In this document: piece after piece, positions 48,623 to 50,718 of the stretch
Layout: the number at the start of each line of letters is the position of its first letter
How positions within the stretch are numbered: the first letter of the stretch is position 1
Assembly: GCA_021734995.1 (NCBI GenBank)
Contig: JAIPHX010000003.1
Location: 11,969-75,968 of the forward strand
Length of the DNA stretch: 64,000 nt
DNA from: Minisyncoccota bacterium
GTDB lineage: Bacteria; Patescibacteriota; Minisyncoccia; Phycocordibacterales; UBA9973
Reading direction: 5' to 3'
Notes under the pieces: model-generated
The model's database searches: none
What the model was told of the DNA's origin: nothing
The model's input: the letters and a program-made list of their open reading frames with translations, nothing else
Made by a program: the position numbers and the translations under genes

Positions 48623-48651
48623 TTGACTTTGCTAGAATGATGATATATACT
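48623..48651 (+). promoter_or_regulatory. Putative sigma70-type rRNA promoter TTGACT-N17-TATACT
   Basis: Near-consensus -35 and -10 elements with a 17-nt spacer, about 250 nt upstream of the 16S. Confidence 0.55.
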
Positions 48652-48893
48652 CCTAGGGCAAGACGTCAATGTAATTGGCGTTTTTGTTTAAGTGATTCTT
48701 TGACAATTCAAGTTGAATAAAAAAATTGAGAACCCCGATTTTTCAATCGGGAGCAAGTCTCATATATTTCGTAAATAATTTTTAGAGAGCAAAGTTCAAA
48801 TTTCTTAAAACACAAACGCAAACCAAACATGCTATTTTTTGTTTTGTTTCGTTCTAGTTTTATTCGTGATTTTTCGCAAATAAAACAAATAAC

Positions 48894-50470
48894 TTTTAAT
48901 TAGAGTTTGATCCTAGCTCAGGATGAACGCTGGCGGCGTGGCTAAGGCATGCAAGTCGAACGGACAAGTCCCATGAATTTATAAGAAACTTTGAGTAGCA
49001 ATACAATTAGAATCAAATATTGGATTGGGTTTGCTTGTTAGTGGCGAACGAGGTAGTAATACATAGGAACTTCCCCCAAAGTCGTGGATAATTCGTCGAA
49101 AGACGAACTAATACGCGATGGTCTCGCAAGAGTAAAGAATTTCGCTTTGGGAAAGGCCTGTGCGATATCAGCTAGTTGGTAGTGTAATAGACTACCAAGG
49201 CTATGACGTCTAGGGGAGGTGAGAGCCTGACCCCCACCGATGGTACTGAGACACGGACCATACACCTACGGGTGGCTGCAGTCAAGAACCTTCCGCAATG
49301 GGCGAAAGCCTGACGGAGCGACGCCGCGTGATTGATGAAGTCCCTACGGGACGTAAAGATCTTTTATGAGGGAAGAAGTTTATTGACGGTACCTCATGAA
49401 TAAGAGGCTCCTAATCTCGTGCCAGCAGGAGCGGTAATACGAGAGCCTCGAGCGTTATCCGGAATTATTGGGCGTAAAGGGTGCGTAGGTTGTTTTGTTA
49501 GTCTCTTGTTAAATACCTCGGCTTAACCGGGGGGTTGCGGGGGAAACGGCAAAACTAGAAAGTGCGAGAGGTGTACGGAACTCATGGTGTAGGGGTGAAA
49601 TCCGTTGATATCATGGGGAACACCAAAAGCGAAAGCAGTACACTAGCGCATATTTGACACTGAAGCACGAAAGCGTGGGGAGTGAAGAGGATTAGATACC
49701 CTCGTAATCCACGCCCTAAACGATCTTCTCTCGGTTTTCGGAGTATCGACCCTCTGAGAGCCTTAGCTAACGCGTTAAGAGAAGCGCCTGGGAAGTACGG
49801 CCGCAAGGCTAAAACTCAAAGGAATAGACGGGGACTTGCACAAGCAGTGGATTATGTGGTTTAATTCGATGGTAAACGAAGAACCTTACCAGGGTTAGAA
49901 ATCAACGTGAAAGCTCTAAGAAACTAGAGCCCTCGCAAGACTAGTTGACAGGTGATGCATGGCCGTCGTCAGTTCGTGGTTTGAATTGTACCCTTAAGTG
50001 GGCTAACGAACGCAACCCTCGTTGTGTGTTACAAGTGTCACACGAGACCGCCCCCACCAAAGTTTTTAAAATACTTTTTGTCATTTGATAAAAAAATTGA
50101 AAATTTTGGTGGGGGAGGAAGGAGAGGATGACGCCAGGTCAGCATGTCCCTTGATACCCTGGGCTACACACATAATACAATGGTCATTACAACGCGCAGC
50201 GAAGAGGCGACTCTGAGCTAATCGTCTAAAGGTGGCCTCAGTTCGGATTGGAGTCTGCAACTCGACTCCATGAAGCTGGAATTGCTAGTAATCGCGGGTC
50301 AGCTAAACCGCGGTGAATACGTTCTCAAGTCTTGTACTCACCGCCCGTCAATTCAAGGGAGCCGGGAGTACCCGAAGGCTCTGCGTTCGCAGGGACTACG
50401 GTAAACTCGGTGACAGGGAATAAGTCGTAACAAGGCACGGCTAGCGGAAGCTGGTCGTGGAATAATTCAA
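48894..50470 (+). rRNA. 16S ribosomal RNA (unlinked; no 23S downstream)
   Basis: 5' agagtttgatcctagctcag. gtgccagcaggagcggtaatac. attagataccctcgtaatcc. 3' aagtcgtaacaagg. AT-rich helix expansions sit at about 48965-49040 and 50045-50110. Confidence 0.85.
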
Positions 50471-50631
50471 TTTGAAACTCTCTAGATTTATCTAGATTAT
50501 AGAGTCGATATTATGTCGCTCAATTGACGACATAATGCCTTTTGTAAGGGCTAATTACAAGGACTATTATTCTAGTCTTTAAAAGAATATGACACATTGG
50601 AAAGACTTGAAGTTATACGTCGCAAGACGGA

Positions 50632-50657
50632 GAACGAAACAAAACAAAGGATAGCAT
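50632..50657 (+). promoter_or_regulatory. 16S trailer half of leader/trailer processing helix (pairs with leader 48829-48854)
   Basis: Trailer gaacgaaacaaaacaaaggatagcat is complementary (24/26) to leader atgctattttttgttttgtttcgttc. This is a classic RNase III-type processing stem bracketing the 16S. Confidence 0.6.
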
Positions 50658-50673
50658 TTCTTTGTTTTAAGAA

Positions 50674-50706
50674 AAACACCTCGCACAAGCGGGGTGTTTT
50701 TTGTTA
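50674..50706 (+). terminator. Rho-independent terminator after the 16S transcription unit
   Basis: aaacacctcgc-acaa-gcggggtgttt followed by tttttg. Confidence 0.55.
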
Positions 50707-50718
50707 TAATATACACAA

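Follow-up and report, generated by a model that had tools for sequence, protein, structure and literature searches.

We consider it highly probable that positions 48623-50702 of the 64,000-nucleotide stretch of contig JAIPHX010000003.1 analyzed here (hereafter, the window) hold a complete and functional transcription unit for 16S rRNA, probably the only one in its genome, and that the host is a Nomurabacteria-like bacterium of the Paceibacteria, in which translation is initiated independently of Shine-Dalgarno (SD) pairing, genes are read from leaderless mRNAs or by coupling, and the tail of the 16S rRNA is kept for pairing with the trailer. In the mechanism that we propose, ribosomes of this lineage would start translation without SD:anti-SD pairing. 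Promoter-proximal genes would largely be read from leaderless or near-leaderless mRNAs, their -10 boxes, often with a TGn extension, lying 5-10 nt before the ATG, and operon-internal genes, the junctions of which overlap or are very short and AU-rich, would be read via coupling or re-initiation. Although mRNA binding would no longer be required of it, the tail would stay under selection through its pairing with the start of the trailer, with which it forms a small hairpin. This hairpin is arranged like the CCUCCUU/AAGGAG pairing of canonical relatives and probably serves 3'-end maturation of the pre-16S RNA.

The 16S rRNA gene and its 3' tail

The whole 64 kb window was searched with the Rfam model SSU_rRNA_bacteria (RF00177; gathering score 50), and a second run was made on 49950-50720. 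The model limits place the 16S rRNA gene at 48895-50472 on the forward strand, with a conserved block that runs on to about 50477. The match (1333.8 bits, model positions 1-1533, not truncated) is that of a full-length bacterial small-subunit (SSU) rRNA with the consensus secondary structure, and the alignment shows an intact decoding-site sequence and an intact helix 45 (GGAA loop) immediately 5' of the tail. The last 13 nt, GAAUAAUUCAAUU at 50460-50472 (+), align gap-free with the model sequence GAUCACCUCCUUU (posterior probability '*' in the second run) and therefore the CCUCC of the anti-SD became AUUCA. The canonical 3' anti-SD, which is typical though not strictly defining of RF00177, is absent here. 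The first-pass annotation of this DNA, made from the letters alone, had described the anti-SD as apparently missing, and this description stands, with no intact CCUCC lying further 3': neither CCTCC nor CTCC is found on the forward strand in 50380-50720, and CCTCC occurs nowhere on that strand downstream of 47532 in the window. An anti-SD shifted downstream is ruled out, as the trailer contains neither CCTCC nor CTCC.

Relatives were sampled by scanning one genome per species for a signature in helix 18 (h18), GTGCCAGCAGGAGCGGTAATAC, which is independent of the tail and yielded at least 120 loci. All figures for relatives, here and below, hold among the matches listed. Among the matches listed, the exact-pattern signature retrieved only Paceibacteria-type 16S genes, and the loci come from Paceibacteria/Parcubacteria metagenome-assembled genomes (MAGs), namely those of Nomura-, Kaiser-, Adler-, Zambryski- and Wolfebacteria, among others; a few of them bear discordant MAG labels. 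The closest 16S among the matches listed is that of Candidatus (Ca.) Nomurabacteria TrH-25oct19-200 (91%). Judged by this 16S signature and best match, the host is a Nomurabacteria-like member of the Paceibacteria, a lineage of the Parcubacteria within the candidate phyla radiation (CPR)/Patescibacteria, in line with the earlier suggestion that its features are CPR/Patescibacteria-like.

Tails were counted in the 78 relatives' loci in which the 3' end was captured; the locus L001 is the same sequence as the window. CCTCC is lacking in 75 of the 78 (about 96%). Besides the window and L001, the exact sequence GAATAATTCAATTTGA is found in 14 other genomes among the matches listed, and the tails of relatives form a graded series (CACCUCCUU, CAUCUCCUU, CAUAUCCAA, UAAUUCCAA and UAAUUCAAU). 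Genomes with only 83-92% identity between their 16S genes still have a strongly conserved tail, GAAUAAUUCAAUUUGA. It should be noted that L001, a public MAG contig (JAIPIX010000004.1; GCA_021734465.1), starts within the 16S gene, at about window position 49356, and continues with identical downstream genes, which is a typical rRNA assembly break.

Within the gene, the h18 (530-loop) pseudoknot at 49400-49432 carries a double compensatory change in the Rfam alignment, from GGC/GCC to UCC/GGA, which converts the 515F primer site to GTGCCAGCAGGAGCGGTAA. Other helices are shortened in the same alignment (the tip of h44, h17 and the h10 region). The GC content of the gene apart from two inserts is 0.50, and that of the window is 32.5%. 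An alternative genetic code (25 or 4) was considered and ruled out: long open reading frames (ORFs) under table 11 cover 87% of the window and therefore no recoding is involved.

A previous survey could detect the anti-SD motif in only 48% of Parcubacteria; lineages without it overlap the group that lacks uL1, and SD helices presumably do not form in them (Tsurumaki et al. 2022, RNA 28:1041, PMC9297842). The gene in the window has the same affiliation, the same absence of CCUCCU from the 3' end and the same shortened helices, and by affiliation and by the lack of CCTCCT it would be a member of this anti-SD-less Parcubacteria class. That study reports motif presence or absence and the overlap with the uL1-lacking group only, however, and not the replacement of the tail, its pairing with the trailer or the initiation of genes. 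As for uL1, a scan of 20 window proteins revealed no ribosomal-protein operon, and the ORFs at 14672-23475, which were considered as such an operon, are defence and housekeeping genes.

Gene starts and promoters

Genes were called in all sets by the same naive procedure (first ATG, at least 90 amino acids, greedy non-overlap), and SD motifs were scored as GGAG, GAGG or AGGA at -18 to -4. None of the 56 window genes has such a motif (random 15-mers, 6.7%), as compared with 29 of the 59 genes (49%) of an E. coli control locus (random 15-mers, 5.5%). The earlier remark that no SD was visible upstream of any gene inspected is thus borne out. Nor are SD motifs enriched in 71 anti-SD-less relatives among the matches listed, where 12.0% of 383 genes have one vs 11.2% in the control region.

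Near starts, TAAT, ATAA and TATA are the 4-mers with the strongest enrichment, and the word TAnAAT peaks, in the window and in relatives, at a box-ATG spacing of 6-8 nt. At a spacing of 5-9 nt, 13 window genes have this box vs 2.1 expected (Poisson, 4e-7); relatives have 36 vs about 5 expected (383 genes, among the matches listed), and E. coli has none. With a relaxed box (five of six positions, 5-10 nt from the ATG), the count is 19 of 55 genes in the window (6.1 expected) and, among the matches listed, 63 of the 383 genes of relatives (14.4 expected). A TGn extension is present on 37-45% of the -10 boxes, compared with a background of 5%. Such TATAAT boxes, often TGn-extended and 6-8 nt before the ATG, are found, for example, at the genes starting at 4624 (-), 10547 (+), 22705 (+), 32754 (+), 42821 (+), 50718 (+) and 56158 (+). 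The TGnTATAAT box at 50702-50720 (+), which ends 7 nt before the ATG of gene 50718, is a candidate leaderless promoter and one of 13 strict (19 relaxed) boxes in the window. The strict box is found at 11 of the 36 putative operon-first genes. With regard to operon-internal junctions, 7 of 20 overlap or abut, and the other 13 are 9-39 nt long.

A -10 element that ends about 6-8 nt before the start codon, as found here beyond chance, is the mark by which leaderless genes would be recognized, and a box that ends some 7 nt ahead of the start codon would put the transcription start at the AUG. Since the -10 boxes pile up 5-10 nt before the ATG, leaderless mRNAs are suggested, and we infer leaderless transcripts combined with translational coupling, such placement of the -10 box being the classic signature. 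Mycobacterium, Deinococcus and many archaea are rich in leaderless mRNAs and likewise have a -10 box about 7 nt before the start codon. Those bacteria, however, keep a canonical anti-SD and use SD motifs on other genes, whereas here there is no SD and the anti-SD itself is gone. No literature linking leaderless mRNAs to Parcubacteria/Patescibacteria was found in the searchable literature.

One could also assume that SD-independent initiation takes place mainly on leadered mRNAs, via AU-rich unstructured upstream regions (S1-type or Bacteroidetes-like), with leaderless mRNAs as a minority. Positions -12 to -6 of the window genes are indeed extremely poor in G and C (C 0-4%, G 2-11%), about two thirds of the genes have no -10 box 5-10 nt from the start, and the 13 of 20 operon-internal junctions that measure 9-39 nt would also be in accord with this assumption. 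Nonetheless, AU-richness alone would not give a sharp 6-8-nt peak of TGn-extended -10 boxes, and the two mechanisms are compatible rather than exclusive. We see mainly leadered initiation as possible but unlikely, and favor leaderless and coupled reading.

Pairing of the tail with the trailer

Conservation of the tail reaches 5-6 nt past the end of the Rfam model and then stops abruptly. At 50466-50476 (+), straddling the model's 3' end, lies the mini-hairpin UUCA-AUU-UGAA, in which the former anti-SD positions are paired to the start of the trailer. In other lineages the hairpin reads UUCC-AAUU-GGAA or CUCA-AAU-UGAG, and canonical relatives have CUCCUU-ucu-AAGGAG at this site. A hairpin of at least 4 bp is present here in 61 of 76 distinct tails among the matches listed, vs 34.8 +/- 3.9 in shuffles. 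The two arms change together: the UCA arm is accompanied by a downstream UGA in 32 of 39 cases, and the UCC arm by GGA in 27 of 27 and never by UGA (Fisher test, 6e-14, kinship ignored). This covariation suggests that the pre-rRNA hairpin was kept while the anti-SD sequence drifted. The tail has thus not simply decayed, but is conserved and still pairs with the trailer as the canonical anti-SD does.

A second hairpin, at 50510-50536 (+), has a 9-bp stem, AUUAUGUCG/CGACAUAAU, that covaries in relatives, and an invariant loop, CUCAAUUGA, a motif that occurs once in the window. Among the matches listed it is found at 36 loci, including lineages with different tails, a few of them not being true trailer matches; an alignment of 27 sequences was made with the few false trailer matches left out. 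In this alignment 97% of the cells are paired, double changes occur in 8 of the 9 pairs, and covariation scores 0.94, vs 0.23 when shuffled and at most 0.21 when the partners were slid. Since only matches with at least 7 of 9 pairs had been admitted, the share of paired cells is overestimated; this filter removed hardly any trailer occurrences.

Another trailer motif, UGACA...GGAAAGAC at 50590-50606 (+), stands just 5' of the 3' strand of the leader/trailer processing stem described below. In most close relatives GGAAAGA is found 13-63 nt upstream of that strand, and in several relatives, judged by eye, it is the loop of a small hairpin, which it is not in the window. No Rfam family matched these conserved trailer elements. 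A pseudoknot between an upstream ATTGAG and the CUCAAU loop of the trailer hairpin was seen by eye in Nomurabacteria-like loci and was rejected, being mismatched in the window and absent in distant loci.

The core of the CUCAAUUGA loop, UCAAUUGA, is a palindrome nearly identical to the 16S tail motif. The palindromic core UCAAUU(U)GA is accordingly present twice, in the tail/trailer mini-hairpin and in the hairpin loop 40-150 nt downstream. By way of speculation, and with a low probability in our estimation, an RNA-intrinsic module may have co-opted what used to be the anti-SD tail in Paceibacteria. The repeated core might then act as a lineage-specific signal for 3'-end maturation or quality control, via a common dimeric factor or tail-loop pairing, or else the mini-hairpin might be kept on the mature 16S, with ribosomes specialised for leaderless mRNAs as the result. 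If true, such a module would link the loss of the anti-SD, across a large class of bacteria, to a rewiring of the pathway of initiation and assembly.

Extensions of helices 6 and 40

The first-pass annotation had two AT-rich expansions interrupt conserved regions of the gene. Both expansions exist, and the one in h40 does form a long helix, but the conserved regions are not interrupted: the two inserts are lineage-typical extensions at the variable hairpin tips of h6 and h40. The h6 extension, in variable region 1 (V1) at about 48969-49033 (+), is a 65-nt insert relative to the Rfam model with a GC content of 0.29, and it folds no better than shuffles (z = -0.2). A V1 of 81-83 nt is common to the window and the loci L099, L080 and L053. 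Compensatory changes are found in 5 of the 10 pairs of its basal stem, and it contains an invariant GUAGCAAUAC segment. The extended h40 helix, CCGCCCCCACC...GGUGGGGGAGG at 50048-50118 (+), has a 53-nt insert at about 50052-50104 (GC 0.23) and 22-nt arms, and it folds as a single long helix (-35.5 kcal/mol, z = -6.9). In relatives the h40 segment measures 78-226 nt, each with its own complementary base, vs 47 nt in Paceibacteria without the extension.

Insertions in rRNA, shortened helices and single-copy rRNA genes have been summarised for CPR (PMC9297842). The insertions described by Brown et al. (2015) are cited both there and in bioRxiv 10.1101/705046, and, as cited in PMC9297842, most of them were reported absent from transcripts. 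As far as these citations convey the work, the window resembles it in having extra sequence inside a CPR 16S gene and differs in that the inserts are short hairpin-tip extensions without the features of introns or homing endonucleases. Indeed, with lengths of 65 and 53 nt the inserts stay below the 100 nt or more of CPR introns and long insertions, and no group I/II fold, homing-endonuclease ORF or intron family was found for them in the window. True introns in the 16S are found in a close relative, L053 (Ca. Nomurabacteria RIFCSPLOWO2_12_FULL_40_42), whereas the gene in the window is without any. L053 has a group I intron at 1625-2143 (Rfam Intron_gpI, 66.1 bits); close to the 3' end, around 2893-3540, lies another insertion, of about 650 nt.

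The extensions might alternatively be intervening sequences that are excised in the manner of RNase III, which would leave a fragmented or trimmed 16S rather than one with retained expansion segments. Such excision would suit the h40 extension, which is a long perfect helix and a good RNase III substrate and whose length and sequence vary freely among relatives, and it would agree with the reported absence of most CPR rRNA insertions from transcripts (Brown 2015, as cited in PMC9297842). The inserts are, however, short and carry no intron signature in Rfam. Moreover, the GUAGCAAUAC segment inside the V1 extension is invariant and shared by relatives, which suggests that this extension is retained and functional. 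We therefore treat excision as a tentative and somewhat doubtful alternative to retained extensions.

The transcription unit and its separation from the 23S gene

The unit begins with a sigma-70-type promoter at 48623-48651 (+; TTGACT, 17-nt spacer, TATACT). It agrees with the consensus at 10 of 12 positions, so that its earlier description as near-consensus is appropriate. The pattern TTGACn-16..18-TAnWMT is found within 400 nt 5' of the 16S gene in 72 of 100 relatives among the matches listed vs 0.9% of shuffled leaders, and TTGACT...TATATACT is common to the closest of these relatives. Two leader elements were read from the sequence, a boxA-like element, TTCTTTGACAA at 48696-48706 (+), and a hairpin, CCCGA...UCGGG, followed by AGCAAGUCUCA (48733-48762, +). 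The former, which we take to resemble the rrn boxA (CUUUGACAA/CUUUAACAA), is a candidate antitermination site, and a boxA-like match with at most 2 mismatches is present in 50 of 100 relatives' leaders among the matches listed vs 7% of shuffles. The leader block GAGAACCCCGA...TCGGGAGCAAGTCTCA was found by inspection also in the loci L071, L074 and L055.

The gene is bracketed by a leader/trailer processing helix, the 5' strand of which (48829-48855, +) pairs with the 3' strand at 50631-50657 (+). A duplex of 24 of 26 bp had been noted here before; it is real and slightly longer, with 27-nt arms that are 93% Watson-Crick (25 pairs), the remaining two pairs being G.U. Homologous stems with compensatory differences are found in relatives (TTTCGTTC/GAACGAAA, TTCCGTTC/GAACGGAA, TCTCGTCTT/AAGACGAGA and TCTCGATCT/AGATCGAGA). 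When the leader/trailer duplexes of relatives were folded on 22 loci, the energies of the whole flanks were not significant vs shuffles, and the core stem alone is conserved. By its long complementarity and compensatory upkeep the helix would be an RNase III-type pre-16S stem, the cleavage itself being putative. Long leader/trailer helices of this kind are cut by RNase III in other bacteria. The arrangement resembles that of E. coli, with long complementarity on both sides of the 16S gene and a boxA-like CUUUGACAA upstream of it. In E. coli, however, the 3' strand of the stem is about 33 nt past the 16S end, whereas that of the window is about 160 nt past it, with the conserved extra trailer elements in between. 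A gene for RNase J (beta-CASP and C-terminal domains), a candidate rRNA-maturation nuclease, is located at 43245-45161 (-), 4 kb 5' of the 16S gene.

The unit ends with an intrinsic terminator at 50671-50702 (+), a 14-bp hairpin (-20 kcal/mol, z = -7.0) followed by a U run. It had been proposed from the sequence and was overlooked by a simple terminator scan of the forward strand, and folding confirmed it. A search of the leader and trailer for known RNA families in Rfam gave sub-threshold matches only, all trailer ones being on the terminator hairpin. At 48575-48612 (+), 3' of the gene at 47909-48481, a hairpin read from the sequence, AAACACCCTT...AAGGGTGTTT, is followed by a T-rich stretch and looks like the terminator of the upstream operon. 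With this hairpin and its own terminator, the 16S unit would therefore be bracketed by terminators.

No match to the large-subunit (LSU; 23S) or 5S rRNA was found by Rfam in the 64 kb window, which extends 48.9 kb upstream and 13.5 kb downstream of the 16S gene. The gene 3' of the 16S is a Ddl-like ATP-grasp gene at 50718-51665, and the same protein is found on the NCBI MAG contig JAIPIX010000004.1. Both results agree with the initial view of an unlinked 16S gene followed by an ATP-grasp gene. In relatives, a 23S gene was found in none of the 17 stored loci tested (each at most 8 kb) among the matches listed. With a separation from any 23S gene well over 1.5 kb and with independent termination, the 16S gene is an unlinked one. 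Brewer et al. (bioRxiv 10.1101/705046) describe the Patescibacteria as a coherent cluster and as one of the clades in which rRNA genes are exclusively unlinked. The genes described in that study likewise have the 16S apart from the 23S and a terminator of its own; there is no substantive difference, and what is added here is the mapping of the promoter, the processing stem and the terminator. In two relatives an RNase P RNA gene is found a few kb from the unlinked 16S gene (L063:2255-2644 and L048:5548-5867).

Other elements of the window

Besides the 16S gene, Rfam recognized nothing in the 64 kb window but a tRNA-Gln, a LOOT RNA and an AdoCbl-II riboswitch. The LOOT RNA (RF03000; 16266-16384, +) scores 74.5 bits, with a gathering score of 46.4, and lies directly 5' of a gene for a tRNA_anti-like OB-fold protein (16449-16919); no descriptive paper on this RNA was found in the searchable literature. 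The AdoCbl-II riboswitch (42569-42679, -) scores 37.9 bits, with a gathering score of 36.5, and is located 5' of a 714-amino-acid ORF (40329-42473, -), for which no Pfam family was found at E <= 0.001. Judging from this arrangement, the ORF would be a B12-regulated gene in a CPR genome. A defence-like cluster at 14672-21535 (+) includes a gene for a protein with an Mrr_cat restriction-endonuclease domain (14672-16180) and one for a fusion of a Schlafen-group-3 helicase with an S24 peptidase (19439-21535, +); between the two lie MazG-like and nucleotidyltransferase-like genes.

Discussion

The reading of the locus as the 16S unit of a lineage with SD-independent initiation has some weaknesses that need to be considered. 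Five relatives that keep (C)CUCC show no SD enrichment either, with only 29 genes among them, and therefore there is no within-clade positive control. Gene starts were taken from the naive first-ATG caller, and the sample consists of 56 and 383 genes, not of a whole genome. AT-rich genomes easily yield TATAAT-like words; the positional peak and the TG extension, however, argue against chance, without proving leaderless transcripts. The covariation statistics ignore phylogeny. Finally, all transcription starts were deduced from DNA, as were the ends of the mature 16S and what becomes of the h6 and h40 extensions.

We think it very improbable that the new tail, or an extended mature 3' end, is a non-canonical anti-SD that pairs with a lineage-specific ribosome-binding motif. 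The strong conservation of the tail at such low 16S identity would be in favor of this idea. Nonetheless, k-mers complementary to the tail, including 5-mers, are not specifically enriched at -20 to -4, the sole rises being AATTA-type words that overlap the -10 box, and for lack of such enrichment an alternative ribosome-binding site complementary to the tail was ruled out. The conservation of the tail is instead explained by its covarying pairing with the trailer. That the 16S gene is a degenerate, non-functional copy or an assembly artefact, with a canonical copy elsewhere, is hardly credible, for although only 64 kb of the genome is visible and the NCBI MAG contig breaks inside the gene, the match is full-length at 1333.8 bits, its h18 pseudoknot shows compensatory changes, the unit has an intact and conserved promoter, processing stem and terminator, and among the matches listed the identical tail is present in 14 other genomes and its tail class in 75 of 78.

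Every feature flagged in the first-pass annotation, from the unlinkage of the gene and its insertions to the loss of the anti-SD and the lack of SD motifs, is real, but none of them is new for this clade. Three further points were not found in the searched literature, namely the leaderless-promoter signature, the tail/trailer hairpin with its covariation and a conserved trailer hairpin with the loop CUCAAUUGA; together they make initiation and 16S maturation in anti-SD-less Parcubacteria directly testable with RNA-seq. On the practical side, gene finders that rely on SD motifs would mis-model starts in such genomes, and the h18 change affects the 515F primer site. Bacteria seldom lose the anti-SD, and among the groups that commonly do, Parcubacteria are the largest. 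In this group, the tail data separate the pre-rRNA role of the 16S 3' end from its role in mRNA docking, and the locus and its relatives offer a concrete answer on how initiation may proceed without an anti-SD, namely through promoters that abut start codons and through tightly coupled gene junctions.

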